A DNA stretch of 15,567 bases from Promethearchaeota archaeon (GCA_018238625.1 JABCSY010000098.1:1-15567), one strand, 5' to 3'; counted from the stretch's first letter, positions 1-15,421 are shown. Notes: generated from the letters alone by a model not told the origin. Numbers and translations are program-made.

Positions 1-369
1 GTCGATTTAAATGCGATCGTTAATATTGAAGAAAATGTTTTAAAAAATCAAGTTAAAAATACCAGAAATAATTTAATCCAAGCAATCGCTGGAGAGACAT
101 TTGAATTCAAGAAAATGTATAAAGGATTTATGAAAAATGCTAAAAAAAACGATGTTTATTTGGCAGAATTTTCGTTTGATTTAGCAAGAATGGCTGAAAT
201 TGTTCATAGCAAATTGTATATTAAATTTTTAAAAAAACTTGATAAAAAAGAACCTTTTGAAGATATAGATATATTTGTTTGCCGGATTTGTGGAAATGTC
301 GAGCTAAGGAAAATCCCTAAAATTTGCCCTAATTGTGAACACGATCAAAAGTTTTTCATGAAAGTATAA
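1..369 (+). CDS. rbr: Rubrerythrin family protein, 5'-truncated by the window edge
   Basis: Frame 1 is open from base 1 (VDLNAIVNIEENVLKNQVKNTRNNLIQAIAGETFEFKKMY...), so ATG 115 is internal. It shows the second diiron helix pair (T..NL..AI.GE..E...MY and AExxH) and a C-terminal rubredoxin-like domain (CRICG...CPNC). Confidence 0.9.
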   Translation, partial: VDLNAIVNIEENVLKNQVKNTRNNLIQAIAGETFEFKKMYKGFMKNAKKNDVYLAEFSFDLARMAEIVHSKLYIKFLKKLDKKEPFEDIDIFVCRICGNVELRKIPKICPNCEHDQKFFMKV

Positions 370-408
370 TTATTAAAAAGAAGTTTATAGAAAGAACTCT
401 AAAAAATG

Positions 409-1116
409 TTATATCGGAACTAGCTGCTCTAACCATAATCCGATAACAAAGGATGCTAAAAAAGCTACAACTCCAATGACGACCATTTCTAAGCCTCCTT
501 TTATGGCTGATTCACCAGTAACTTTTGTTTTTAAACCTCCAACGATGAAAAGAGAACTAAGAGATAAAATTGAAGAAAAGAGAAGCGAAATCACTCCTAA
601 ATTTAGAAAATAAGGTAATTGAGGGATCAGGGCTCCAAAAACAAAAGAAAAAAAAGTTAATAACGCTCCTATAATTGGATTTTCAGTTTCTTCTAAACCT
701 AATTCGTTTTTTATTAAAAATTCTAACCATTTATCCTCGTTTGCCGTAATAGATTCTACACATGGATTTAAAATCTCTTCTTTTATCCCCATTTTTTTGA
801 AGATATCTCTTACTTCTTCCTTCTCTTCTTCAGGAAAAAGCAAAATTTCAGCTTTCTCTCTTTTAATTTCATTTTTAACATAATTATATTCAGATTTGGA
901 TGAAATATATTCACCAAGTCCCATACTTACAGCTCCGGATACCATTGCTGCAATTCCAGTTAATATTACGATAGTATTATCCCCACTTTTTATTAAAGTT
1001 GCTGCAGCAACGCCTACTAATAATGTAAATGTTGAAATGAGTCCATCGTTCAAACCAAGAATTACACTGCGAATCTTACCGCCGCCTTTTATATGTTCTT
1101 CCTTTCTTTCTGACAT
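409..1116 (-). CDS. VIT1/CCC1 family Fe2+/Mn2+ transporter
   Basis: Signature motifs IRSVILGLNDGL and AGAVSM-like SGAVSMGLGEYIS, a Glu-rich cytosolic metal-binding segment (EIKREKAEI..FPEEEKEEV) and about five hydrophobic segments. Confidence 0.93.
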   Translation of the reverse strand: MSERKEEHIKGGGKIRSVILGLNDGLISTFTLLVGVAAATLIKSGDNTIVILTGIAAMVSGAVSMGLGEYISSKSEYNYVKNEIKREKAEILLFPEEEKEEVRDIFKKMGIKEEILNPCVESITANEDKWLEFLIKNELGLEETENPIIGALLTFFSFVFGALIPQLPYFLNLGVISLLFSSILSLSSLFIVGGLKTKVTGESAIKGGLEMVVIGVVAFLASFVIGLWLEQLVPI

Positions 1117-1142
1117 AATAAATAATTTATTGGAAGTATTTA

Positions 1143-1180
1143 CACAAAAAATTTTGTGATGATTTAAAAAATTAAATCAT
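1143..1180. promoter_or_regulatory. Two abutting inverted repeats in the divergent VIT1/dehydrogenase promoter region (candidate operator)
   Basis: CACAAAA-aa-TTTTGTG (1143-1158) is directly followed by ATGATTTAA-aaaa-TTAAATCAT (1159-1180). The regulatory role is inferred from position. Confidence 0.35.
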
Positions 1181-1274
1181 TTGTAAAATAAAAAATGCAA
1201 TATTAATATTTGAAAAACTAATTTATATTTAAGAATTCACAACAATTAATCATTACTTGAGAAGAGATTGAAAA

Positions 1275-2255
1275 ATGAAAGCTGCCGTTTTTGTAGATGT
1301 TAAAAAAATTACTTACAAAGAAGATTATCCTACACCAACTCCTGGACCAGATGATGTTATAGTGAAAGTACATTACTGTGGAATATGTGGAAGCGATGTT
1401 ACTAATTTTAAAATCAAAATGTATCAAGTGCCATTAATTATGGGACATGAGTTCGCAGGAGAGGTTGTCGAACTCGGAAAGAACATTACAAATGTTGAAA
1501 TAGGCGATAAAGTTTGTGGAATTAATGTTTTATTAGATATTAGCCAAGGGCAGTTAGATGGAATGGGTATCTTTAAGGACGGTGGATTTGCAGAATTCGT
1601 TCGGGTACCTAAAAAATATCTATTCAATATTCCTAAATCTGTTTCAATTAAAGAAGCAATAATGATAGAATCGTTTTCTAATGCAGTAAGAGGGACAAAA
1701 TTATCTAAAATCACTTCAAATCAAAATATAATTATCATTGGCGGAGGAAATATAGGTCTTTGCTTTTTAAATTATTTAGTTAGTGAAAGAGATCCCAATT
1801 ATATAGTTGTAATTGAACCTCAAAAATTTTTAAGAGAAAAAGCTAAAGAAATGGGCGCAACAGAATCGTTTCCCCCTACCATGGTCAAAATTAATAAATT
1901 TATTAAAAAATTTGGCAAACCTTCTTTTATATTTGACTGCGCAGGGAACGAGCGATCCTTACTTATGGCAATTGATTTGATAAAGCGCGGAGGGACCGTA
2001 TTATTGGAAGGTGTACATAAAGGACGTATTTCCTTCCCAATGTTCTTAATAAACTCTAAAGAAGTATGCTTGAAAGGAGTTCTTGGTCATGATCGAGACG
2101 ATATAATTGCGTCTTTAAAATTTTTTGCTCAAAATAAGATAAAAGCAGAAAAACTTATTTCACACGTAATACCGATACAAGATATACAACAAGCATTTGA
2201 AAAGTTCCTTGAACCGGGCGAAAGAAATTTTATTAAAATAGCAATTAAATTATAA
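1275..2255 (+). CDS. Zn-dependent alcohol dehydrogenase (MDR superfamily, threonine/sorbitol dehydrogenase-like)
   Basis: Catalytic Zn motifs CGICGSD and GHEFAGEVVELG, Rossmann motif IIGGGNIG, acidic residue after beta-2 (VVIEP, suggesting NAD preference) and IFDCAG. The substrate cannot be assigned. Confidence 0.9.
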   Translation: MKAAVFVDVKKITYKEDYPTPTPGPDDVIVKVHYCGICGSDVTNFKIKMYQVPLIMGHEFAGEVVELGKNITNVEIGDKVCGINVLLDISQGQLDGMGIFKDGGFAEFVRVPKKYLFNIPKSVSIKEAIMIESFSNAVRGTKLSKITSNQNIIIIGGGNIGLCFLNYLVSERDPNYIVVIEPQKFLREKAKEMGATESFPPTMVKINKFIKKFGKPSFIFDCAGNERSLLMAIDLIKRGGTVLLEGVHKGRISFPMFLINSKEVCLKGVLGHDRDDIIASLKFFAQNKIKAEKLISHVIPIQDIQQAFEKFLEPGERNFIKIAIKL

Positions 2256-2265
2256 GACCAAAATC

Positions 2266-2778
2266 TTATTCTACTATTTTTAGAGCATATTTAGCTATCA
2301 TTTCAAAAGATTTCTCGACATTTTCACCATTCTTAGCCGATGTATGAAAAATTAATCTAGCATTTATTCTTTTTCCTACGATTTCTACATCGTTTTCAGA
2401 AATGTCTGAATTAAGATCTGATTTATTAGCTAGTAAGATTATTGGAACCTCAGCACAATATTTTTTCATATCTGGGCTCCAAAATTGTACTATTTGTTCA
2501 AAAGTATTTCTTCTCGCGAGATCTCCAACAATTAAAGCACCATGAGTCCCTCTATAATATAAATGTCTCATTTTTATCCATTTTTCTTGGCCAGCTATAT
2601 CCCAAATTTGAATTGAGACTTTTTTATCTGAGTTTAGCTCTAACTTTTTAATAAACATGTTTGTTCCTATTGATGCTCGATAATCTTCAGTAAAGTGACC
2701 AGAAACGAATTTTTTTACTAAACTCGTCTTACCGACTCCAGCTTCTCCAATTATTATTACTTTAATACGATAAACCAT
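2266..2778 (-). CDS. Rab-like small GTPase (Ras superfamily, eukaryotic signature protein)
   Basis: G1 GEAGVGKTS, switch I YRASIG, G3 WDIAGQE, YYRGT, G4 NKSD, G5 TSAK. The start is probably ATG 2778 (MVYRIKVIIIG); the ORF track start at 2823 is an alternative. Confidence 0.93.
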   Translation of the reverse strand: MVYRIKVIIIGEAGVGKTSLVKKFVSGHFTEDYRASIGTNMFIKKLELNSDKKVSIQIWDIAGQEKWIKMRHLYYRGTHGALIVGDLARRNTFEQIVQFWSPDMKKYCAEVPIILLANKSDLNSDISENDVEIVGKRINARLIFHTSAKNGENVEKSFEMIAKYALKIVE

Positions 2779-3118
2779 CTTTATTAAAGAATTTGTTTTC
2801 GAACCTATATATATTTCTATCATTAATTTATAACATCAAAATTTTAAGGTTTTTTCAACTCTTATTTTTTCAAATTTAAAGATTCAAAAACTTAACTTAA
2901 AATAAAGATAGAAGCTTTAACTTGAGAAATGAAGATGGAATAAGGACTTTTTGTAAGTTAAGAGATGAATATGGGGCAAAATGAGTTAATATTTCTTATG
3001 TTGGCCTCGTTTAAACTAATAGAAACGATATTAAAAAAATGAGGGTTTTTTTGTTCTTTAAATAGATATGCAATAATTAGATAGTAAGAAATTATTTAGG
3101 TTTTAAAAGGTAAATACT

Positions 3119-3733
3119 ATGTTAAATAATCCAGAGGATCCATATTTAGAATTAGAATCAGAGGAGCTTTTCCTTGAATGGTATAAAATTGAGGGTGTAA
3201 GAAATATAACTGAACTTTCACGTCAAGTTCGAACCCTCTTAAACTATAAGACTGAAACTATAAAATATAGATTTCGATCCAATGAAAATACTTCAATAAA
3301 ACAAACAAATACAAAATTTTTCAATCTTAAACAGAAGTTTGAGTCTTTAGCGCTAAGATTTATTATCCTTCTTAGGAGTATTAAAGAAACAGCAAGAACA
3401 CTTGAAGAAGGAATCCAATCTCTATTATTTCACTCTGAAAAATCACGCTTAAAAATGTTAGAAGAAATTACTGACCAAATTTTTGTACAAATCCATTATT
3501 TTTCTGAAGAAAACCTTCACGATCATCCGGTCTTTCTTAGATTATTGGTTAAACTAACGCAAGAAGCCTGTTTGGTAAAAAAATGTATAATTACGCAATC
3601 TTCTAAATTCTTTGAGGAGCTTGGTAAAAATTATTTCAATTTAGAAAAGGAACTAAATATTTTAATTCCTTATAAAAAACCTGAAGAGAAGATTATGAAA
3701 GAAAAACAGCATTATGAGGTATTAACCTCGTGA
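3119..3733 (+). CDS. Hypothetical protein, 204 aa, predicted all-helical and soluble
   Basis: Long ORF in AT-rich DNA whose stop overlaps the GTG start of the next gene (GTGA at 3730-3733). No motif recognised. Confidence 0.75.
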   Translation: MLNNPEDPYLELESEELFLEWYKIEGVRNITELSRQVRTLLNYKTETIKYRFRSNENTSIKQTNTKFFNLKQKFESLALRFIILLRSIKETARTLEEGIQSLLFHSEKSRLKMLEEITDQIFVQIHYFSEENLHDHPVFLRLLVKLTQEACLVKKCIITQSSKFFEELGKNYFNLEKELNILIPYKKPEEKIMKEKQHYEVLTS

Positions 3734-6507
3734 AAGCATATAATAAGGTGACCAGAAAGACAGTAGGGGAGGATCGTATCGCAATCTGTCCAAAGTTTGG
3801 ATGCGAGTCAATTACACGAGTTAAACCTCTTAAATTTGGTTTTCTTGGTTTTGGTAAATATCCAAAATGTAAGAAACACCACATTCCTCTAGTCTATGTT
3901 GATGAAAGGATCGGAGATTTCGTTGATGCTGCACTTGCTTGCCTGTTTGACAGAGCGGGACTTCCTCCAAACGATTTACTCAAGATTATAAACACGAAAT
4001 TCCCTAAGGACTTGAAAACATTTATACAGGGCTGGATTTATTGTATCACAGTCGGAAGGGGGGCTCGTATTGTTTCACTTTATATGGATTCCATTTCCAA
4101 TGCTTACCTTAAACAGCTAACCAAGAAACAAATTAAAAATCTTAAAAAAGAATCTCAATCAAATATTAATAGGATATCTCAAGCAATAAGGAATGGAATG
4201 AATGAAATCACGAATCAATATACACGACTTCTCAAGCACCTTCGAACTCATTCCGAGGTCCTTATAGAGCTTGATCAACTCAAACCACTTTCTAATGATC
4301 TTAGAAAAGTTCTACTTGCTTGGCAAAAAATCACTCTAAAAGAGAGTTTGATATTGCATACAGTAGAAAGCAAACGTGAAATTTCACTTGCAGAAACAAA
4401 AACTTACTATGACCAAATCCTCAATGTTGGTGTATGTAGGTGCCTTCTTGGATATTCCCCAGAAAGTAGAGAAGTCCAGAAAAGTGGATTGACCGCTTTT
4501 GATAGATTTTCTGCTTATTATGATTTTTACTTGGAAGAATTAACTGAGAAATTTACAAAATCTGATATTGAAGGGCTTATCCAAACTAACAATAATATTC
4601 AAGAGTCCATCAATAAAGACATCGAAATACCTGAACTCCTAAAAAGGAAATATCATTTTCTATTAAACCCTAAATTGGTAACTGCTTTTATTCTATACAC
4701 TAAGCATTCTAACAATTTAGGAGAGAATAAATCTCCCAATTTTGGAACTCGATATATTACTAAAGATTTTAAGAATTGGCTTGATAACAAAGAAAATTCC
4801 CAAGAATTACAAAAAATTTGTATTTCTATCATAAAAAGAAATGAAATCAAAAATTTCATTATTGACTTAATTCAAACGACTAATCTAAATCAAACACAGA
4901 TAGTAGAGGTTTTGAACAACCTTGGGTTATCGTTTAATCTTGAGACAATTAAGAATGTTGCACTAAAGTATATTTATCAAGGGAATATGAAATTGTATTC
5001 TAAGAGATTTCCAAGAGGTCTACATAGAAGGGAAAGAATAGTAATAACTAAGTCTGTTTCTAAAGATTATGACATTCCTGGAGTTAAAGCCCCTCAAATT
5101 TTTATATACGATAATAAATTTAGATTATCAATTAATTTTATTAAAACATTAAGCGAAATTACCTATAACTTACTATTAAGGTCTGGTTTAAAAGATAAAC
5201 AGGATATTTTCAAAGAAAATATTAGTATTGAAAAAAAAGTGAAAAATTATATCAAGATTAATAATATATTAGACCATTCCCCTATAAATAATCCCCGATT
5301 CAAGCAATTTCTTGATAAAACAATAAAAGACTTTACTGTTATTATAAGTAGCCTAGTGATATATAACGAAAAATCTAAGGGAGAACTATTCAAACTAAAA
5401 AGTTTTGCTCAAGAGTTGATTAAGAGAAATTATAATTTAGAATCAGCTTTGGTTACGTTAAGATCAAAAATCTTACCAGAGATTATAGACCACTTGAACC
5501 ATATCTTTACAGATTTTAATTTAAAAAAGTTAAGCAAAAGAATATTGGAGCAAGATGAAATAGGAAAAGTATGTGGGTATTGTGGTATAAAAAAACCATG
5601 GAGCGAATTTCAAAAAATATCTAAGGGAGGATATGTGTCTAAATGTAAAAAATGCACAAGTATATATGGTGAAATTATAAAATATAAAAAAAAATTACGG
5701 TTATTATTTGAACTGCAAAATGGTAGATTTAAGGGTAAATGTTCCACCTCTAATTGTTCAACGGATTTTTTACACCTCCCAGCTTTTGATTTTCATCATC
5801 CTTCTAGGAAAAATAATTCTTGGATTAAATTGTTAAAAAAAAAATATCAAACCCTTAAGGATTTATTGGAAGAAGATGGAGTTTTTCCTCTCTGTAAAAA
5901 TTGTCATGCTCCAAAACAGCAGAGTATCCTTTTAGATTATAAAAATTTAATTCTAAGCCATTATTTGTTTAGAAATAAATCAGGTGAACAAAAAAATAAA
6001 AAAGAAATAAACAATATGATTGATGAAGCCATTTTAAACTATCCTAACCTTAAAAATAAATTAGAAAAAGATTCTCAATATATAGGACATGTAAAATATA
6101 TGATTAAGTCGTGGATTCGAAAACGTGCAATCGTAGAACAGCTTTATGGAGGTAAATGTATAAATTGTGGTGAAACCAATCTTAGTTCCTTAACTTTTCA
6201 CCATATAAATCCTGAAAAGAAAAAGGATATTTCTAGTGGAGCTTTTAGAAAGCTTTCAATTAAGCAATTAGCAAATAAAATGATTCAAGAAGAATGTATA
6301 TGTTTATGTGCGAATTGTCACACGATGATTGAAGCGACTATATTTAGAGAACATTCTGAAGAGATATTCGTAGATATGGAAAAAAAAGAGATATATGTTA
6401 AAAAGATTAACTACTTTTACGAAAAATTGATAAAAAATATTCAAAAGGAACACAAAAGAATTACAAAAGCTTCTCAAAAATTTCCTGTAATTGATTATTT
6501 GGAATAA
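3730..6507 (+). CDS. Large multidomain protein: N-terminal Cys/His Zn-binding module, HTH-like middle, C4 Zn finger and two tandem HNH endonuclease domains
   Basis: CPKFGC...CKKH (aa 20-50); CGYC...CKKC (5572-5655); HNH-1 GKCSTSNC...FDFHHP...LCKNCH (5734-5907); HNH-2 GGKCINCG...LTFHHINP...LCANCH (6148-6321). Confidence 0.8.
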   Translation: MKAYNKVTRKTVGEDRIAICPKFGCESITRVKPLKFGFLGFGKYPKCKKHHIPLVYVDERIGDFVDAALACLFDRAGLPPNDLLKIINTKFPKDLKTFIQGWIYCITVGRGARIVSLYMDSISNAYLKQLTKKQIKNLKKESQSNINRISQAIRNGMNEITNQYTRLLKHLRTHSEVLIELDQLKPLSNDLRKVLLAWQKITLKESLILHTVESKREISLAETKTYYDQILNVGVCRCLLGYSPESREVQKSGLTAFDRFSAYYDFYLEELTEKFTKSDIEGLIQTNNNIQESINKDIEIPELLKRKYHFLLNPKLVTAFILYTKHSNNLGENKSPNFGTRYITKDFKNWLDNKENSQELQKICISIIKRNEIKNFIIDLIQTTNLNQTQIVEVLNNLGLSFNLETIKNVALKYIYQGNMKLYSKRFPRGLHRRERIVITKSVSKDYDIPGVKAPQIFIYDNKFRLSINFIKTLSEITYNLLLRSGLKDKQDIFKENISIEKKVKNYIKINNILDHSPINNPRFKQFLDKTIKDFTVIISSLVIYNEKSKGELFKLKSFAQELIKRNYNLESALVTLRSKILPEIIDHLNHIFTDFNLKKLSKRILEQDEIGKVCGYCGIKKPWSEFQKISKGGYVSKCKKCTSIYGEIIKYKKKLRLLFELQNGRFKGKCSTSNCSTDFLHLPAFDFHHPSRKNNSWIKLLKKKYQTLKDLLEEDGVFPLCKNCHAPKQQSILLDYKNLILSHYLFRNKSGEQKNKKEINNMIDEAILNYPNLKNKLEKDSQYIGHVKYMIKSWIRKRAIVEQLYGGKCINCGETNLSSLTFHHINPEKKKDISSGAFRKLSIKQLANKMIQEECICLCANCHTMIEATIFREHSEEIFVDMEKKEIYVKKINYFYEKLIKNIQKEHKRITKASQKFPVIDYLE

Positions 6508-6637
6508 AAGTTTGGATAAATCTTTAAAAAGTAATCAGATATTTAATTATTTAGTTAGATAGATTTTGAAGATATTGGTATATCCAAAAGGTTAATGGAA
6601 AATATTCTATACGGCTCTTATCTGCTAAAAAAAAAAT

Positions 6638-6652
6638 AGAAAGTTTTTTATA
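6638..6652 (+). promoter_or_regulatory. Putative archaeal BRE/TATA promoter of the deacetylase gene
   Basis: Purine-rich AGAAAG followed by TTTTTTATA about 40 nt upstream of ATG 6691. Similar elements precede 1275 (GAAAAACTAATTTATAT), 7902 (TTTTTATAT) and 8951 (GGAAAATTATTTATAT). The AT-rich background lowers specificity. Confidence 0.4.
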
Positions 6653-6690
6653 GTAGTATAATAAAAAATCATTATTCAATAGTTTAAAAA

Positions 6691-7788
6691 ATGGTTAAAA
6701 TGAAAACAGGAATAGTATACGATCCAGTATACCTTAGCCACCGGATAGGTTCACATGTTGAAAGTCACGAAAGACTGGTTGGTATTATGGATTTCTTAAA
6801 AGATAAAAAGGTATTGAAAAATCCTAATTTCGAATTAATTCAACCTAGAAAAGCTACTTCCGAACAAATTAAATATGTCCATCAAGAGAGCTTAATTAAC
6901 GAAGTTAAAGAAGTCAGTGAAATAGCTCAAGTTACTGGACATATTCAACAACTTGATATGGATACAGCAGTATCTGCTAAGACTTATGAAGCTTCTTTAT
7001 ACAGCGTTGGAGGTATGTTAAATGGAATCGATGAAATTTTAGATGGTAAAGTTGATAATGTCTTTGCAGCAGTACGTCCTCCAGGACATCACTCAAACGC
7101 CTATAAATGTTCAGGGTTTTGTATATTTAATAACATCGCTATCGCTACAGAGTATCTATTTAGAGAAAAAAATATCAAAAAAGTAGCAATAATCGATTGG
7201 GACTGCCATCATGGTAACGGGACCGCGTCTATTTTCTATGAAGGATCTGACAATGGCGAAATTGTAATGTTTAATTCTCATCAAGACGGCAGAACGCTTT
7301 ATCCTGGTAGCGGTTTTATCGATGAGATAGGTTCAGGGAAAGGGGAGGGAAAAATAATTAATTTTCCTATGCCTCCTAGGGCTGCAGAAGACATAGTACT
7401 AACATATTTTGAAGAAATCATAAACCCAATATGTCAAGAATTTAAACCAGAATTTATCTTGATTTCTGCTGGTTTTGATACTCATTGGACAGATAGATTA
7501 ACCAATATGGGATGGACAATTCAAGGACCCGCAACTTATCTAAAAAACATAAAAACTATGGCAGAAGAATATGCAAATGGAAGAATTTTAATAACATTAG
7601 AAGGGGGATACGAAATCGATAAACAAGCAAAAGCGGTATACAATTGTTTGCAAGTTCTCAATAATAACAATGACAACTTAATTGAAGAAAAACCTAGAAA
7701 ATCTAGTGAAGAAGTTTTAAATTATGTAAATAACAAAATAATCCCCGAATTAAAAGAACATTTAAAACCCTATTGGAATTGCTTTTAA
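6691..7788 (+). CDS. Histone deacetylase family protein (class II-like HDAC/AcuC/AphA, Zn-dependent amidohydrolase)
   Basis: Motifs HVESHERL, RPPGHH, GFCIFNN, DWDCHHGNGT, YPGSG, SAGFDTH and LEGGY; catalytic and metal residues are intact. ATG 6700 is an alternative start. Confidence 0.95.
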   Translation: MVKMKTGIVYDPVYLSHRIGSHVESHERLVGIMDFLKDKKVLKNPNFELIQPRKATSEQIKYVHQESLINEVKEVSEIAQVTGHIQQLDMDTAVSAKTYEASLYSVGGMLNGIDEILDGKVDNVFAAVRPPGHHSNAYKCSGFCIFNNIAIATEYLFREKNIKKVAIIDWDCHHGNGTASIFYEGSDNGEIVMFNSHQDGRTLYPGSGFIDEIGSGKGEGKIINFPMPPRAAEDIVLTYFEEIINPICQEFKPEFILISAGFDTHWTDRLTNMGWTIQGPATYLKNIKTMAEEYANGRILITLEGGYEIDKQAKAVYNCLQVLNNNNDNLIEEKPRKSSEEVLNYVNNKIIPELKEHLKPYWNCF

Positions 7789-7901
7789 TTTTTAAAGTTC
7801 CCCTTCAAAAAATAATTTAAACTAAAATTTTTAAACAAAATCCACTATTAAAGTTACAAACTATAGTAATTTTTATATTTAAACAATAAGAGAAGATAAT
7901 T

Positions 7902-8765
7902 ATGTCGGAAGAATATGAAAGAGATGACGAAGATGAATATAGACCACGTGGTCCTCCTCCATCAATCCCTCCACCAACTATAACTCCACCACCGATAGCT
8001 CCCCTAACGCCACAACCTCCGCCCGCCCCCTCGTTTGAAGCACCCATTTATCAGCCGGAACCTACTATTCCTAGTGGTCCTTCACAGGCAGATTATAACA
8101 TGATAATGACTCAAGTTCAAGAGAAAGACAGAACGCTCAATGAATTACAAAATCAAGTAAATGAAGCTAATGCTCAATACGCTAATTTAAATGCGCAATT
8201 CTTAGATAAAGATAATCAAGTAAGACAATTAACTGGCCAAGTTCAATCTCTTCAAACATCAATGGAAAGCTTTCAGAATCAAATTACACAGTTAAATAAT
8301 GAGAAGGCTCAACTACAAGCTCACATTCCTCAATTACAAAATCAACTTCAACAAGTTCAACAAGAAAATATGACCCTACAACAACAAATTGGCCCATTAC
8401 AAGCCCAAATCAACAAATTACATGAAGAAGTCAATTATAAAGAAAAAAGAATTCAGGAATTGAAGGAGCCCAAAGCTGTTATGCCATCAAGTTTATCTCA
8501 AGGGATTACTTCACAAACTCCATCATACAGTAGCAGCCCTTCTTTTGGACTTCCAGCCGATTCTACGCCAATTTCAACCCCCGCCCCAGCACCAACGCCT
8601 AGTATAAGTCCGGGACTTGGATCTGGAAGGCGAATTTGCCCTAATTGTGGAGCTACTGGATTTGCAATTAAGGAGGTTGAGGATAAATCAAAAATAATAA
8701 GTTACATCCCTAAACCGATTTTTGCAAAGAAATCTATCTGCACCAAATGTGGTTTTGAATTTTAA
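7902..8765 (+). CDS. Proline-rich, coiled-coil, C-terminal Zn-ribbon protein
   Basis: Acidic N-terminus, Pro-rich segment (aa ~14-60), Gln/Asn-rich heptad region (aa ~65-190), Ser/Pro linker and CPNCG...CTKCGFEF at the C-terminus. Confidence 0.85.
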   Translation: MSEEYERDDEDEYRPRGPPPSIPPPTITPPPIAPLTPQPPPAPSFEAPIYQPEPTIPSGPSQADYNMIMTQVQEKDRTLNELQNQVNEANAQYANLNAQFLDKDNQVRQLTGQVQSLQTSMESFQNQITQLNNEKAQLQAHIPQLQNQLQQVQQENMTLQQQIGPLQAQINKLHEEVNYKEKRIQELKEPKAVMPSSLSQGITSQTPSYSSSPSFGLPADSTPISTPAPAPTPSISPGLGSGRRICPNCGATGFAIKEVEDKSKIISYIPKPIFAKKSICTKCGFEF

Positions 8766-8795
8766 ATTATTTTATTTTTCAACTTTTTTATTTGA
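8766..8795 (+). terminator. Putative archaeal oligo-T terminator
   Basis: Several T4-T6 tracts directly after the stop at 8765 (ATTATTTTATTTTTCAACTTTTTTATTTG). Confidence 0.4.
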
Positions 8796-8950
8796 ATTTA
8801 AACAAAATCTACATTCAATATTTTCGATTATTTGGTTTTATTAATCAATATTTCATATAATTTTGAATTATTAGGAAAATTATTTATATCATTATTTTAA
8901 TTAATATTGCAAACTTAATATAGAAAAGTTAAGGGTAAAATAGAGTAAGT

Positions 8951-11900
8951 ATGTCAGAATTTCGTGAGGATTTATTAGCTTCTACCATAAATAAAAAACG
9001 ACTAGTTAAAATCATTTTTACAGCTGTTTTATTGGTAACCTCATTTGCATTTTCAGTCTTCTTGTTTAGCCTTCTCTGGGGGACCCAAAGACCCCTTCCA
9101 AGCGACCGCTTGTCCGAAGCAGAAGATGAAGATGTAATATTAATGCTTCCTCCTTTCCCTTATAATATGTCAGATTTTCAAGATCAATTTTCAGACCTTA
9201 ATTTAACCCAAGACCAATTACAAGACCTATTAGACGCATTACAAGATATGTTTGATGGAGATATTGACGATTTAGATTTAGGTAATTACTCCCAAACTCT
9301 TGCCTCTCTTATGTTTTCTGAAGTTGAGGTATTTAGATTATATGACTATAACGATTTTAACGAAATGACAACAAAATTATGGAAATATGAATGTTTTGAC
9401 GAATATACCGGTGATGGGTGGCATTCAACTGCAGCTAAACAGCCGCATGATTTTTATTCTGATAGTGATTATTTATCATACCATTCTGATAAAGATATTA
9501 TTAAACTTAAGATGCCATTATCTCCTACTGTTGGCATAAACTCAATGGTAATTCCAAACTTATTCCCGACACCATTTATAATGAATGGAAGTCTCATGGC
9601 AAAAAATATGGATAATTTATCTACAATGCTATATCAGGATAACTTTAACTGCACAACAGTTGACTTGCCCTTCTATGATAGTGGTGATGTGAATATGAGT
9701 TATGAATTGTTTGGATTAAATTTACCTACGAATGATCAAATCAATTCTTCTGCGATACATGCTAGTTATACTCCTTTATCGATTCAAAATATATTCCTAC
9801 AATTACCACCAAGCATTCAAGTTTATCTCGCAAATAATCCTTTTGTGTATAACGACTATCTAGCTCTAAATAATTCAATTTTACCAAATGATAGTGCTTT
9901 TATTGTTGCTAATAAAATAAGAAATTATTTGCAATATCAGTTCACATTACCTTCAGATCTTTCGAGTTATACCACCGCGCCTCAAGGAAGAGATGTTGTC
10001 GACTATTTTTCTGAAACTCGAGAAGGCTTATGGTCGGAATTTGCTTCAGCATTTTGTGTTTTTAACAGAATTTTTGGAGTAGCAAGCCGCTTCGTTGATG
10101 GTTTTAATAGTCTTGGTATAGAGGAAATGTTAGAAAATGGACAAAACACAACTGCGATTAAATATAAGAATATGTATAACTGGGCTGAGATATTCATTCC
10201 AACTGATATTAGTGGTAATGGCCAATGGGTTCAAATGGATGTTCTTTTTGACGGCTACGGAGTAGGAGGAAACCCTTGGAGTCCTGAAAATTATTCAATT
10301 ACTGTAATTACTAATTTTACTGAGGGATTTCGAAGTAATCAGGATGCTTTAATAACAGCCACTTTATCTCAATATGGTGCCCCGTTAGAAGGAGAAACGA
10401 TAACTTTTATTGATCTTACAACAGAAGATATTTTGGGTTATGCAACTACAGATTTCAATGGAAATACCTCGATAACGATTCCAATTGATAACAATCAAGT
10501 TGTTGGTCCTCACTATATTGGTGCTTCTTATAATCCTCAAACATTTAATTATACTAGTTATGATATTTATGGAAATGTTCAAGTTCAATTAACTAATATC
10601 AGTCCTCAAAGTGTTAATCTTTCTATTAGCACATTCACAAATATTCAAGGATATGTCGTAGATCCCTTAAATAACATACGAGTGAGGAATGCTCAAATTG
10701 AACTTGTATTATTAAATAAAGGAACTAATACCAGAGTTCTTCCCACCTTCATTCCTAATTTTTGGGTTACTGGTCCGAATGGCGATTTTGATATGGGAGT
10801 GGATGTAGATCTTTTATTATCGCCCGGAGAATGTGAAGTGAGAGTCGATTTTAACAGCACTTTTTTCGACCTTATTAATTTTTCGCCTTTCAGTTTACCC
10901 CTCGTAAGTAGCTCTTCAAGTAATAGAATAGATTTTAATGTGACTAAAGGTATTGTTAAAAAAGTATGGTTTTATATCAACAACATTCCATCGGATATCC
11001 CAGATTCTCCCGTTGTAAATAGATTATCGACAGTTGTTCTAAAGGCTAAAGTCGTAAACGAAACTAATTATCCATTAGCTAATCAAGATGTTATCTTTTA
11101 CGATTACACGAGAGGCATTCAAATAGGCTCGAATACGACGAATGTTAATGGAATAACAACTCTTAACTATCCTATTGGGACTTCTAGTACCACAGGCCCG
11201 AATCTATTATATGCTAAAATAGGAATTGAAGAAAATTATACTTATTTTATATTAAATGAAGAACCAACAATTAACATTTTATCTGGGCCAACACCTCGAG
11301 AAATTAATCGTACAGGTGCAGGAGCCAGTAATACTATTTTTAATATGGAAGGAGAAATTTTAGATAAAACAAACAATAATCCTATTAAATATTCTGAATT
11401 AAATTTAAAACTATTAAAAGGGGGAACGGATTACTCTACATATTTAATGCCAAGTAGTACGATATGGACAGATTTTAACGGATATTTTAATTTTAATTTT
11501 GAAGTTGCATCAAATACACCAACAGGAAATTATACCTTAAGACTTGATTTTAATGGAACTATTGATTATAATTTGCATCCCGTATATCCCACCTTATTTA
11601 ATTTACCTTACATTAATACATCCTCAACTTTAGCAAATGAATTAAAAGTAACTACTCTTACTACCTTGTTATTTAATTTTTGGATAAATGATACAACTTT
11701 TGACGATTATTATCAACCTGTAATTAATAGAAATGGAAACATAAATTTGTCTGTTTATTTAGAGTGGGGTGATCCTCTTGACAATGAAGATATCGATTTT
11801 TATGATCTCACTCAAGATATCTTTCTTGGAACCGTTCAAACAAATAATGGGAGAGCTTCACTAATTTATAATACAAACGCTTCAACGGTCGCGGGACCTC

Positions 11901-13384
11901 ATTTAATATATGCGAAATGGGGATCGAATTATAATTATTCATACTTCACTCTGAATGATAACATAACTCTTGATGTTCAAGTTGGACCCAGTCCTAATCA
12001 AATTAACAGGGGTGGAGAAACATTTACGCTTCAAGGTACTATAAGTGATGCTTCAAATGGCAAACCAATAAAATTTACTGAAATTTATATTGCATTATTT
12101 GATGATACAATGACAGATGTTTCCTATTATTTATCTTCTAATTGGTTCCAATTGGATGATACTGGCACATTCGATCTTACTTTGTCTGTCGATAGTGGGA
12201 CTCCTGCTATAAATTTTACAATTAATGTAGGATTTTATGGAGTGTTCATTTATTCATTTCCTAATAATCAGTTTAATGAATTTAATTTTTATTTTGACAT
12301 ATTAACTTACAGTAATTTTACTAGTAATGATAATGGAAACTTCGAATTGAAGGTAATCGATCCAGATGATATTACCATTCAATTCTGGGTTGATGATAAT
12401 CCAGCTTTATCGTTTTACAACATTGATAATCTGCCAGAAAGGTATAATCCAGGAGAATTCATTAATTTTTCGGTATATGTTACACAGAGTGGAAGTCCTG
12501 TAAGTGATGGAACCGTAACACTTACCGATGTTTATATTAATTCCCAGATTGGATCACATCCATTTGAACTTGTTGATAATGGGAGATGGGATTTTGTAAT
12601 CAATTCAAGTTCTTGGCATGCCGGTTTACATAAAATAAAAATTCAATGGTCAACATTCCCGGCATATAACACGACTTTCGTGATAATTAACGAAACAATA
12701 AATATCTCAGCATTTTCCAATATTCCTAAAATCCAAAGAAGTGTCGATACTTTTAACATATATGGTTCTGTTCAAGATGGAACTACCAATTTGAATGGAT
12801 TGGATATCAAAATTTTACTATTTGACTCTAGTATGAATGATGTCTCTTATCATTTGAATTTAGCAGGAAGTCAAACAATTAATGTATTTGACGGGAGTTA
12901 TCAATTTGATGTGAATTCAATTTCAATTAATTGTCCTCAAGGACAATATTACTTTAGGATTGATTTTAATGGAACAATTAGTCAACCAGGAATATATGTT
13001 ACCAATTATCTGATTAATAGAAGTAGCATACTCGTTCCAGTGAATATAACTGCAGGAACTTACATAGTTGGTAATTATGATACAACCTTTAAAGATGGAT
13101 TCTATCAAGGTGATGAGTTATATGCTTATGGTTATTTATATTGGGATAATGGATCTCTTATTACAGGAAGCAGGACTATTACCATTACTATCGAAGATGG
13201 GGGAATTATAAAAACTGAGACTGGTTCCACTGATGGTAGTGGATGGTTCAATATAACTGTTTCAATTGATACTATCTGGGAAGATTGGACTGAAATATGG
13301 GCAAATTTTTATCCCGAAGATAGTTTTACTGCACCAGCTAATTATTATATCGAATTTACAGAGATAGAATTATTTAGACCGTGA
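8951..13384 (+). CDS. Large membrane-anchored surface protein with a transglutaminase-like domain (catalytic residues substituted) and repeated beta-rich (Ig-like) units
   Basis: N-terminal basic stretch plus hydrophobic helix (aa ~15-44); LWKYECFDEYTGDGW resembles the YWR...FD.Y.G..W motif that precedes TgpA-type TGase domains; core P.GRDVVDYF..TREG-x-SEFASAF...RIFGVASRFVDGF...WAEIFIP...WVQMD; long beta-rich C-terminal region with many N-x-S/T sequons. Confidence 0.85.
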   Translation: MSEFREDLLASTINKKRLVKIIFTAVLLVTSFAFSVFLFSLLWGTQRPLPSDRLSEAEDEDVILMLPPFPYNMSDFQDQFSDLNLTQDQLQDLLDALQDMFDGDIDDLDLGNYSQTLASLMFSEVEVFRLYDYNDFNEMTTKLWKYECFDEYTGDGWHSTAAKQPHDFYSDSDYLSYHSDKDIIKLKMPLSPTVGINSMVIPNLFPTPFIMNGSLMAKNMDNLSTMLYQDNFNCTTVDLPFYDSGDVNMSYELFGLNLPTNDQINSSAIHASYTPLSIQNIFLQLPPSIQVYLANNPFVYNDYLALNNSILPNDSAFIVANKIRNYLQYQFTLPSDLSSYTTAPQGRDVVDYFSETREGLWSEFASAFCVFNRIFGVASRFVDGFNSLGIEEMLENGQNTTAIKYKNMYNWAEIFIPTDISGNGQWVQMDVLFDGYGVGGNPWSPENYSITVITNFTEGFRSNQDALITATLSQYGAPLEGETITFIDLTTEDILGYATTDFNGNTSITIPIDNNQVVGPHYIGASYNPQTFNYTSYDIYGNVQVQLTNISPQSVNLSISTFTNIQGYVVDPLNNIRVRNAQIELVLLNKGTNTRVLPTFIPNFWVTGPNGDFDMGVDVDLLLSPGECEVRVDFNSTFFDLINFSPFSLPLVSSSSSNRIDFNVTKGIVKKVWFYINNIPSDIPDSPVVNRLSTVVLKAKVVNETNYPLANQDVIFYDYTRGIQIGSNTTNVNGITTLNYPIGTSSTTGPNLLYAKIGIEENYTYFILNEEPTINILSGPTPREINRTGAGASNTIFNMEGEILDKTNNNPIKYSELNLKLLKGGTDYSTYLMPSSTIWTDFNGYFNFNFEVASNTPTGNYTLRLDFNGTIDYNLHPVYPTLFNLPYINTSSTLANELKVTTLTTLLFNFWINDTTFDDYYQPVINRNGNINLSVYLEWGDPLDNEDIDFYDLTQDIFLGTVQTNNGRASLIYNTNASTVAGPHLIYAKWGSNYNYSYFTLNDNITLDVQVGPSPNQINRGGETFTLQGTISDASNGKPIKFTEIYIALFDDTMTDVSYYLSSNWFQLDDTGTFDLTLSVDSGTPAINFTINVGFYGVFIYSFPNNQFNEFNFYFDILTYSNFTSNDNGNFELKVIDPDDITIQFWVDDNPALSFYNIDNLPERYNPGEFINFSVYVTQSGSPVSDGTVTLTDVYINSQIGSHPFELVDNGRWDFVINSSSWHAGLHKIKIQWSTFPAYNTTFVIINETINISAFSNIPKIQRSVDTFNIYGSVQDGTTNLNGLDIKILLFDSSMNDVSYHLNLAGSQTINVFDGSYQFDVNSISINCPQGQYYFRIDFNGTISQPGIYVTNYLINRSSILVPVNITAGTYIVGNYDTTFKDGFYQGDELYAYGYLYWDNGSLITGSRTITITIEDGGIIKTETGSTDGSGWFNITVSIDTIWEDWTEIWANFYPEDSFTAPANYYIEFTEIELFRP
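10280..13060 (+). repeat. Four diverged protein-level tandem repeats of about 230-243 aa
   Basis: Anchor motif VGPHYIGA / TGPNLLYA / AGPHLIYA / AGLHKIKI with Gly codons at 10505, 11195, 11894 and 12623. Second anchor VRVDFNST / LRLDFNGT / INVGFYGV / FRIDFNGT. Boundaries are approximate. Confidence 0.75.
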
Positions 13385-13400
13385 GAGGGATGATGAAATT

Positions 13401-14936
13401 TTGAAGTTCAATAAAAAAATACTGATTAGCTCATGTTTCTTGATTTCTATCTCAATTTTATTTTATATGAAATATCCCTCAGAATGTTCGAAATATAACC
13501 AAGAAGAACCTAAATCTTCTGGAATTTGGGCTACTTTAGATTTAACGAATCCAATAGGAATAAACAATACAAGACATCAAACTAATAGTGTCATTAATAT
13601 ACAAGGAAGGCTTTATAATCTCTTCAATGGAACTGGAAAACAAGGATATACTGTAATAATTTATATAGATGGAACTCCATACCATAGTTTCAATGATATT
13701 ACAAATGGAACTGGTGATTTTGATATTGGTTTCACTGTTGATCCTTTTCTTGACGTATTTACACCTCACAGGTTAGAAGTCATTGTTGATAATCCCATAC
13801 CTCCTGGAGATGTTGATTATATATCTTATTATAATATTTCCATAAGCACAACTTCTTATTTCGAATTATACGATCCTTCTGTACCAAAAATATTGGGTGA
13901 GAATTTAGAATTTGAAGGATACCTAAGATATGAAAATGGAAATGAAATTCCTTTCGAAACCTTAAATTATTATTGGTATGATGGACCTGATTTAGTTTAT
14001 TCTGATAATGCATTCACCAATTATGAGGGAGAAATTAATGATTTATATATTCCCGATTGGGTAGGTGATGATTTATCGTTAAAATTTAATTTTAGTAATA
14101 CTCCTTATATCAATTATTCTCAAGCTTTTATGTTAAATACAAAATTATTTACTAATATTTCATGCGATTGGAATCTTCCCGATCCGATAGCAGAAAATAG
14201 ACAATTTAGGATCCGGGGACAGGTACTTTCTTTAACCAATCCCAGTCTTTCTATTAGTTATCGCACAATTCGGATTTTATATAATTTAAGTACTATAGCT
14301 ACTGTAGATACAGATGTTAATGGAAATTTTGATTTTACTTATCAGCTATTAAATGGTATAGGATTAACTCATGTAAAAATTGAAATAGATGGTCCTTCAG
14401 GAATCCTTTCTACGAGTCAGTTTATAAATGTAGAAGCTGCACCACCTCCACCACCTCCACCTAATCCCGACGAGGTTCCATTTTTAGCTTTCTTTGCGGT
14501 ATTTTTCACTATCTTGGCAGTTGTCATTGGTGGATTAGCCGTTTATGGATATCGTTACTATAAAAAACAAGATAAGCTATCTAAAGTTGTAAATTTACCT
14601 CTTGAAAGCAAAATAATAAATCTGAAAATTCTTAAGGATACAGGAAGATTAGAAGAATCTCTGTCCTACCTGTTTAACGCAATTTATATGGATTTAATAA
14701 ATGCTAAGTTTGGAAGAACCCGAAGTGATAATGAAACTATAAGAGATTTTGCTATAATTTCTGTTAAAAATTTAAAGCTATCCCCAACCACAATTTATCC
14801 CTTTATACAAAAAGTTGAGGAAATTATTTACGCTAAACCGTTTCAAATTACAGACAATGAATTTTATAACGCAATTGATTTATTTTCACCTATATATTTC
14901 GAATTAACAGGTTACAATTTTGTATTAAATTTTTAA
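13401..14936 (+). CDS. Membrane protein: N-terminal signal/anchor, beta-rich ectodomain, poly-Pro stalk, TM helix and cytoplasmic DUF4129-like helical domain
   Basis: MKFNKKILISSCFLISISILF signal-like start; P7 linker (14442-14462); TM FLAFFAVFFTILAVVIGGLAVYGY followed by RYYKK; tail with R...ETIRDFA and VEEIIYA motifs resembling DUF4129 (T..E / E..RYG). The TTG start is uncertain. Confidence 0.8.
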   Translation: MKFNKKILISSCFLISISILFYMKYPSECSKYNQEEPKSSGIWATLDLTNPIGINNTRHQTNSVINIQGRLYNLFNGTGKQGYTVIIYIDGTPYHSFNDITNGTGDFDIGFTVDPFLDVFTPHRLEVIVDNPIPPGDVDYISYYNISISTTSYFELYDPSVPKILGENLEFEGYLRYENGNEIPFETLNYYWYDGPDLVYSDNAFTNYEGEINDLYIPDWVGDDLSLKFNFSNTPYINYSQAFMLNTKLFTNISCDWNLPDPIAENRQFRIRGQVLSLTNPSLSISYRTIRILYNLSTIATVDTDVNGNFDFTYQLLNGIGLTHVKIEIDGPSGILSTSQFINVEAAPPPPPPPNPDEVPFLAFFAVFFTILAVVIGGLAVYGYRYYKKQDKLSKVVNLPLESKIINLKILKDTGRLEESLSYLFNAIYMDLINAKFGRTRSDNETIRDFAIISVKNLKLSPTTIYPFIQKVEEIIYAKPFQITDNEFYNAIDLFSPIYFELTGYNFVLNF

Positions 14937-15040
14937 TAAATAGAAGTAAAAAATATATAAAAAAAAAAGTAGAAAAAAATTTAAAACCAAAAAAAATTAT
15001 GAATTAAATAATTTAAAAATTAACCAAATTGGTAAAGAAT

Positions 15041-15421
15041 ATGGCAAAAAAGAAAAAATCAAAAAAAGAGCAAGAACCTGAAGTAGATATCAAGCAAAAA
15101 TTTGAGAATGCAAAAGTACTAGTTGATACTAATAGGGCAAAAGAAGCAATAGCATATATCTACCTTATTTACAACGATATAATAACAATAAAATTCAAAA
15201 AACCGCGATTAGCTCACCAAACGATACGAGAGTATGCGATTAGATGTGTTACCGAGTTAGATCAAAAGCCAGAATCCATATACCCTTTTATTAAAAAAAT
15301 CGAGGATATTATATATGGTGGCGTAGAACCAACAAATAAAGAGCTAAATTTTACAGTTCAACTATTTTCAAATTTATACAACGATATAACAGGAAAGGCA
15401 TTGCCAACAGTAAGTTTTTAG
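15041..15421 (+). CDS. Stand-alone soluble DUF4129-like protein, paralog of the preceding gene's cytoplasmic tail
   Basis: Aligns by eye with the C-terminus of 13401-14936 (QTIREYAI vs ETIRDFAI; IYPFIKKIEDIIY vs IYPFIQKVEEIIY). ATG 15041 is preferred over TTG 15029. Confidence 0.85.
   Translation: MAKKKKSKKEQEPEVDIKQKFENAKVLVDTNRAKEAIAYIYLIYNDIITIKFKKPRLAHQTIREYAIRCVTELDQKPESIYPFIKKIEDIIYGGVEPTNKELNFTVQLFSNLYNDITGKALPTVSF

Follow-up and report, generated by a model that had tools for sequence, protein, structure and literature searches.

A probable free-standing homing cassette with an exchangeable head and tail at the Rab-HDAC site of a Loki-type Asgard archaeon

The 15,567-nucleotide (nt) stretch of DNA analysed here (the window; Promethearchaeota archaeon, GCA_018238625.1 JABCSY010000098.1:1-15567) carries, between a Rab-like GTPase gene and an HDAC gene, a cassette of two overlapping open reading frames (ORFs), A and B. 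Together with A, the N-terminal part of B forms a constant head, and the rest of B is a tail that follows the insertion site. Our results make it likely that this is a free-standing, intronless homing cassette with two exchangeable parts, belonging to Loki-type Asgard archaea. Its features are listed below, counted from the first letter of the window, with protein positions in amino acids (aa):

2779-3045, no strand: left spacer, foreign to the closest relatives, replacing the native Rab promoter region
3046-3085, plus strand: conserved putative cassette promoter, with a T-tract, a TTTAAATA box (3057-3064) and TAATTAGATAGT (3074-3085)
3119-3733, plus strand: gene A, 204 aa, an all-helical partner
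3730-6507, plus strand: gene B, 925 aa, with a GTG start
3730-4569, plus strand: constant head of B (aa 1-280), with a CCCH zinc site and a helical domain that matches no known fold
4531-4569, plus strand: head/tail exchange zone (aa 268-280), defined by a junction at aa 268 in relative G028 and by branching contigs
4570-6507, plus strand: site-specific tail (aa 281-925), with a basic helical region, a C4 zinc finger and two HNH-like units
5572-5655, plus strand: C4 zinc finger (C615/618 and C639/642)
5740-5907, plus strand: Cys-rich HNH-like unit 1 (HH...CxNCH, aa 671-726)
6157-6321, plus strand: Cys-rich HNH-like unit 2 (HH...CxNCH, aa 810-864)
6620-6699, plus strand: foreign HDAC promoter/5' region carried by the element, as judged from scores against empty alleles and from its presence in the occupied G028 allele
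6700-6753, plus strand: recoded first 18 HDAC codons, the predicted resistant copy of the target, with its core at 6727-6746

Both coupled ORFs are genuine. The initial annotation of this DNA had read their GTGA overlap (3730-3733) as translational coupling and had made its cassette depend on the two proteins occurring together, at a copy number to be established. Both points are borne out: an A homologue sits directly upstream of B at 57 of 59 B loci, which puts the coupling beyond chance, the 4-nt overlap is present at 46 of those 57, and genomes of relatives hold 0-9 copies. Of the two exceptions, one is truncated by the end of its contig, and in the other a divergent ORF of 202 aa occupies the position of A.

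At 30 HDAC loci compared, Rab is directly adjacent in 23 and ADH in 4, and a window-type tail lies upstream in 3 (the window's own genome, G000, and relatives G006 and G028). The empty Rab-HDAC site that the initial annotation had thought worth looking for is therefore found at 27 of 30 loci, including four relatives whose HDAC is 88-93% identical, so that the nuclease gene stands outside introns and inteins, between conserved genes, with empty alleles in kin. Four relatives have no Rab between ADH and HDAC.

Identity to the close empty alleles stops at the Rab start codon. Against the four closest of them the left spacer gives alignment scores of 33-43, near those of shuffles (32-35), and its best match, in G007, is weak (49 versus 30 for the shuffle). 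On the other side of the cassette, 6620-6699 scores 64-79 (shuffles 30-35) against 5 of 23 empty alleles, from more distant species, and only 37-43 against the four closest. Within HDAC, nt 31-60 of the window are 57% identical to each of the four closest empty alleles, close empty alleles being 97-100% alike there (three G020 pairs compared), and the next ten 30-nt bins show 73-100% identity, mostly above 85%. The window allele thus holds 3975 nt (2779-6753) in place of a spacer of about 130 nt and 54 coding nt. A recoded HDAC start and a foreign promoter in the occupied allele are what is expected from homing, and the divergent flank adjoins the nuclease gene here, which is consistent with co-conversion. 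The initial annotation had missed both this recoded start, which travels with the tail, and the replaceability of the head.

Misassembly is argued against by a single 4060-nt contig of run X1, possibly the source sample, which is identical over 2749-6808. Runs X1 and X7 contain occupied ends and also empty-type HDAC 5' ends, which diverge from the window at 6744/6754; read-contig joints with short sides and low depth were left unused. In relative G010, A and the head lie next to Rab, at a contig end. The cassette is younger than its flanks: against G010, A and the head show a synonymous substitution rate (dS) of 0.38-0.45, while Rab reaches 0.99 and ADH 2.5. Against G028, tail dS falls towards HDAC (0.24, 0.27, 0.12 and 0.02), HDAC itself being at 0.38.

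A similar asymmetry is seen elsewhere. At 4 of the 5 other G000 loci with close empty alleles, flank identity drops on one side only, and L039/L051 retain the former 3' end of the target gene, stranded upstream. For leuS the comparison is less clear, as G000 has two copies of this gene, at the contig ends of C30 and C152. Compared with the leuS that follows the G026 cassette, the syntenic copy is 74% identical and the other 99%; two strains may be involved.

Comparison across the family divides B into two parts. Conservation along B falls sharply at aa 280, from 0.81 to 0.34, and G000 has three copies of B aa 1-285, each on an unrelated tail: HNH-like (window), GIY-YIG-like (contig C148) and zinc-finger/PD-(D/E)XK-like (C101, by eye). 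Across the family, 199 full proteins fall into 55 tail clusters, with HNH, GIY-YIG, LAGLIDADG and PD-(D/E)XK types and one TnpB-like tail. Among 47 tail representatives, 15 match nuclease families in Pfam (8 LAGLIDADG, 2 of them in an intein-like frame, 3 GIY-YIG, 2 HNH_3, 1 PDDEXK_5 and 1 DEDDh) and 6 match DUF4379 zinc fingers; LAGLIDADG_3, GIY-YIG, HNH_3 and PDDEXK_5 are the families matched above cut-off by sister tails; such tails belong to long-established homing families, a point in favour of homing. The accessory cassette proposed initially, in which the small gene and the N-terminal module form a constant core for a variable nuclease, is strongly supported by the head survey, by these tail clusters and by the coupling of A and B. 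Neither a failure of the two genes to occur together nor a conserved single-copy syntenic gene of a known family, each of which would have spoken against it, was observed.

Tails track the insertion site: for example, the same neighbours have the same tail cluster at three loci each for clusters C2, C5 and C6 and at four for C3. Heads and tails are shown to reassort. Of 1975 protein pairs sharing at least 75% head identity, 1671 differ in tail cluster, with head identity up to 97.5% between proteins bearing unrelated tails; the reverse case is seen in 20 pairs. These counts come from kin genomes and are not independent events. In the head tree, the window stands apart from the G006 copy of the same site and tail, and a copy with a C6 tail groups with one bearing a C2 tail (support 100/99); the tree has 14 open branches and was built without 9 of the 60 B ORFs, namely L087 and others that are short, split or lack a tail. 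Downstream of B, 31 different neighbours are found at 46 loci; neighbours of the cassettes are housekeeping genes. No immunity gene is shared downstream across these 46 loci, and a small linked downstream ORF is found at 3 of them, one being a broken piece of tail.

The distribution is patchy. Heads are present in 22 of 61 relatives (18 of 36 in the same genus), and a phylum-wide draw found them in 17 of 301 genomes, 15 of which, besides G000, belong to the same family; the head is thus found almost only in one Lokiarchaeal family. The B head has 104 representatives in a library of 1.84 billion. Gene A has 150 homologues, and among the 120 listed all named ones are Promethearchaeota/Lokiarchaeota, as are the source-named homologues in general, one of them labelled Helarchaeota. 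Several cassettes may lie close together at separate sites: four within 65 kb of one contig (G016:C78; L053, L055, L058 and L082) and three within 39 kb of another (G028:C46; L046, L052 and L065). In G000, contigs C47 and C101 look like a single locus split by assembly (L002:1-860, L003:1-275, L004:235-699); at the start of C101, half of A is joined to an ORF of bacterial appearance, and C182 holds a fragment of A, which may reflect chimeric contig ends. Upstream of the C148 cassette, a histone-like gene seems frameshifted, by eye (L001:11335-12350 = G000:C148:53334-54349).

The head can be replaced as a whole. In G028, the window tail (aa 268-925, 89.8% identity) forms the end of an acidic protein of 1733 aa whose gene follows that of a HerA-like ATPase, and the allele shares the foreign HDAC promoter of the window. 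The Rab side of G028 is on a separate contig that keeps the native spacer to about 28 nt before the old HDAC start, and the two would join there. An unrelated acidic head thus replaces the A-B head at the same Rab-HDAC site. Other heads or tails branch from the window at 4534 and 4568-4569 (contigs, runs X6, X7 and X10). A site-specific recombination core at the junction was considered and is not supported, codon conservation there (0.75-0.81) being equalled by other blocks of the head.

Twelve of the 23 acidic-head proteins examined have tails related to A-B tails. For three of them this relationship reaches 80-90%, and for two of these the same site is shown (HDAC and a DEAD-type helicase). 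At the helicase site, G027 has a small A-B cassette and G034 has about 27 kb between the same flanks. This island ends in an acidic-head nuclease gene and carries Cdc6, RNase III, NYN, LRR, a TFB-like zinc ribbon (by eye), a HExxH membrane protein and a HerA/CedD/VirB4-like ATPase, which stays below cut-offs except for DUF87. A scan of 21 of its ORFs recognised no integrase, and G034 has its sole PF00589 match on a different contig. L087 is the only A-B locus with an ATPase among the neighbours shown. This locus (25-10675), which comes from another family, has a membrane HerA-like gene, an acidic gene and an A-like gene upstream of a gene whose 1919-aa product joins a distant head to RuvC motifs that look TnpB/Cas12-like by eye; the DNA that would follow this gene is missing. 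The fusion matches Pfam TNB under cut-off (E 0.009), its RuvC was not recognised in PDB and NCBIfam searches, and it has no homologue except itself among proteins of 1055-3359 aa. P0309 is a second fusion of a head to a TnpB/Cas12-like region.

Other acidic-head genes were also seen. One, on G000 C67 (L006:2102-9000 = G000:C67:2102-13172), has two HerA/VirB4-like genes upstream; another, on C150 (L005:3808-8880), has a tandem-HNH tail, its ATPase being reduced to a 46-aa remnant. In L053:8617-12187, a further type of acidic head bears a tandem HNH_3-like tail; its gene is flanked by a GTPase gene and by a 93-aa repeat of the 3' end of that GTPase gene, a layout like that of the WHO elements discussed below.

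The head itself remains without a match. The N-terminal motif of B reads C20-PKFG-C25, x21, C47-KK-H50; C25, C47 and H50 are invariant among 44 heads and C20 is at least 90% conserved. The invariant residues also include K, R, Y, D and W; the cysteines of the CRC pointed out initially in the helical domain are not among them. Models were obtained with predicted local distance difference test scores of 87.3 for the B head and 82.7 for gene A. For the B head, Foldseek returned nothing at E <= 0.001, the best VIA Z was 6.0 and the Atlas gave nothing above 0.78; the top structural Z of gene A, 9.0, is inside the range of generic helical bundles. Neither protein matches a known family and the fold searches returned generic helical matches only, which does not prove that the modelled folds are new.

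Protein B as a whole was described initially as a Zn-module, helix-turn-helix (HTH) and tandem-HNH protein. The Cys motif, the C4 finger and the two HNH-like units are present, and no HTH family matches aa 281-610, a region that only resembles the helical repeats of another tail in the same genome. The HNH identity suggested here comes from profiles: PHROG 2255 (HNH) matches in two stretches (E 3.9e-21), Pfam HNH stays under cut-off (E 0.066), the best PDB match is McrA (E 0.01), a PDB sequence search gave nothing, and in the Atlas the tail reaches 0.93 to a cluster with 25% HNH. The ratio of nonsynonymous to synonymous rates (dN/dS) is 0.17 (versus G006) and 0.29 (versus G028) for the window tail and 0.30 (versus G010) for gene A, and most segments are under purifying selection (0.17-0.33).

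As to the borders of the cassette, the closest Rab homologues align from aa 16, and the start of the Rab-like ORF, listed as 2266-2823, was therefore moved, so that it probably lies at 2778 rather than 2823; the left gap given initially as 2824-3118 becomes 2779-3118. The strict form of the putative promoter occurs in 16 of 55 regions upstream of A genes and only twice in G000, each time ahead of an A gene, and at least 7 of 10 pyrimidines lie 5' of the box in 47 of 52 cassettes versus 40 of 234 boxes genome-wide. A sigma-70 promoter scan was at chance level (18 versus 20.6) and an Rfam search of the window gave no match. Behind HDAC, the window encodes a proline-rich coiled-coil protein with a C-terminal zinc ribbon (7902-8765), kept there in most relatives, and then, within 8951-15421, a 1477-aa transglutaminase/Ig-like surface protein, a membrane protein of 511 aa and a protein of 130 aa whose C-terminal region is similar.

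The pattern shown by these data comprises patchy multi-copy occurrence, empty alleles, site-tied tails, a recoded piece of the neighbouring gene and head/tail exchange at about aa 268-280. A homing mechanism could produce it as follows. The tail would bind the native allele and cut or nick it close to where HDAC begins, with 6620-6753 as the most likely target region; homologous-recombination repair from an occupied allele would then copy the cassette and, with it, a promoter and first codons that resist cutting. The tail and the recoded flank would form an 'address', the head (A and B1-280) a shared chassis, and no integrase would be necessary for spread. This supposes that two alleles meet in one cell, by DNA transfer or fusion, for which intein homing in haloarchaea is a precedent. 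What the head does is more tentative. Our best guess, held at slightly under even odds, is control, with A binding the head and keeping or timing the nuclease; a less probable role, suggested by the alternative acidic/HerA head, is to link the nuclease with machinery for DNA transfer, and it is a little more doubtful that the head serves mainly as a homology arm for tail swapping.

Several observations weigh against homing. The occupied G006 allele has a different HDAC start (60% in nt 31-60), and gene starts generally vary more than gene bodies, though the empty alleles do not vary here. L081, a close locus, has no recoded flank, and some tail clusters are found at more than one site. Only 15 of the 47 tail representatives match a nuclease family and 18 have no Pfam match. 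The canonical HNH motif includes an Asn and a last His, and both are replaced in the window units, which are putative HNH units by their profiles. The last quarter of the window tail has a dN/dS of 0.98, on few changes. Finally, the homing model leaves unexplained the route by which a cassette reaches a new site.

Entry into new sites would be explained if the head were a new recombinase or transposase inserting the cassette, the tail only guarding the site, as TnpB does for IS200/IS605. Its apparently new fold with invariant residues and the two distant TnpB/Cas12-like fusions would suit such an enzyme, which we nevertheless hold to be very improbable: there are no terminal repeats, target duplication or fixed ends around the cassette, and the head is wholly replaceable at the same site. 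Neither the family searches of the cassette nor the fold searches of the B head recognised a recombinase, though one of an unfamiliar kind could escape them. A defence role, in which the head would sense infection and release the variable nuclease against viruses or plasmids, seems just as improbable, even though a patchy, multi-copy, two-gene cassette with nuclease effectors under purifying selection would fit it. No PADLOC or NCBIfam system is matched; with PADLOC 2.0, A gives nothing and B only a weak match to LeoA (E 0.005 over 76 aa). The neighbours are housekeeping genes, not defence islands, and site-specific tails and recoded host gene ends would be left unexplained.

An allele-specific weapon, whose nuclease would be delivered to neighbours or act on incoming DNA and so damage relatives bearing the native allele, with the flank as immunity and the head as delivery tag, is unlikely too, if slightly less so. 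It would account for the presence of the same tails on an acidic head beside a HerA/CedD/VirB4-like ATPase and a HExxH membrane protein, and a constant N-terminus with a variable C-terminal nuclease, here in 55 tail clusters, is the layout of polymorphic toxins (PMC3482391). The cassette differs from these, as described in part of that survey, in that its tails are tied to chromosomal sites and that it has no adjacent immunity gene or recognised trafficking domain, the HerA/VirB4-like ATPase standing beside the alternative head; LAGLIDADG and GIY-YIG are absent from the part of the survey examined. The cassette does not agree with a polymorphic toxin system on this point, no small cognate immunity gene being adjacent. 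Transfer of the flank between lineages, moreover, needs movement of DNA. Toxin-immunity fits badly because the partner is upstream and constant across unrelated nucleases, and no immunity gene is shared. Of the three roles first proposed, the selfish one fits, and defence and toxin-immunity do so badly. All three rivals explain the recoded flanks less well than homing.

A broader possibility, which we regard as rather doubtful, is a two-tier, integrase-free system of mobile DNA in which 'address modules' would be traded between transfer islands and 3.4-kb satellites, core promoters and gene ends being rewritten across species. An address module would be a homing nuclease of any family, including RNA-guided TnpB-like ones, with its recoded target piece; the islands would be large and plasmid-like and provide the means of transfer between cells (HerA/VirB4-like ATPase, membrane protein, TFB-like gene, Cdc6), and the satellite head, of new fold, would with its partner control the nuclease and exploit this transfer. 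If homing holds, the archaea closest to eukaryotes would harbour a family of free-standing homing elements spread over the whole chromosome, Lokiarchaeal species would often exchange DNA, and housekeeping gene ends (HDAC, leuS, helicase, a sugar isomerase-like gene) would be mosaic. The family would also offer a natural collection of site-specific nucleases, with recoded flanks that reveal the likely target of each, and the head of the cassette is a confidently modelled domain without known fold match. With the predicted target and resistant alleles both available, an in vitro test would not require the host to be grown.

The comparisons that follow draw on parts of the cited papers. Among the open-access papers listed on Asgard and Lokiarchaeota homing, toxins, selfish endonucleases and TnpB/inteins, no description of the cassette or of its swappable-head mode of spreading was found. 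Asgard-specific mobile DNA includes aloposons, with tRNA-site insertion and giant proteins, and Opia viruses have Cys-rich HNH proteins; the passages on Asgard mobile elements do not describe the cassette (PMC8813620, PMC11529989). Domain-swapping phage homing endonuclease genes and their islands also exchange nuclease and binding modules and move cargo with the nuclease, but nuclease and DNA-binding repeats are shuffled there (PMC10448857), whereas here a whole specificity tail is swapped behind a constant head not recognised as a nuclease or binding domain.

The seg and mob genes of T4-like phages are closer, being free-standing, intergenic GIY-YIG and HNH nuclease genes between conserved genes, with a cut site apart from the insertion site and co-conversion of the flank (PMC2988022). 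The cassette differs in being chromosomal and archaeal, with an obligate partner gene and a replaceable 280-aa head of unmatched fold common to at least four unrelated nuclease superfamilies. WHO elements, at FBA1 in Torulaspora/Lachancea, encode a LAGLIDADG/zinc-finger intein-like protein and carry a divergent end of the target gene that replaces the host's (PMC7282813), as the cassette does; the stranded old end is found at the related locus L039/L051. In the part of that paper concerned, they form one family, at one gene and at its 3' end, whereas the window copy replaces the promoter and 5' end, has HNH-like units and belongs to a family at dozens of sites. The window cassette is not itself a WHO element, its tail being HNH-like and its neighbour HDAC; intein-like LAGLIDADG tails do occur among its sisters. 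It would work in the manner of free-standing homing endonucleases and WHO elements, and the family shows in addition a replaceable head, the replacement of a promoter and 5' end, an island without detected integrase and a TnpB-like tail.

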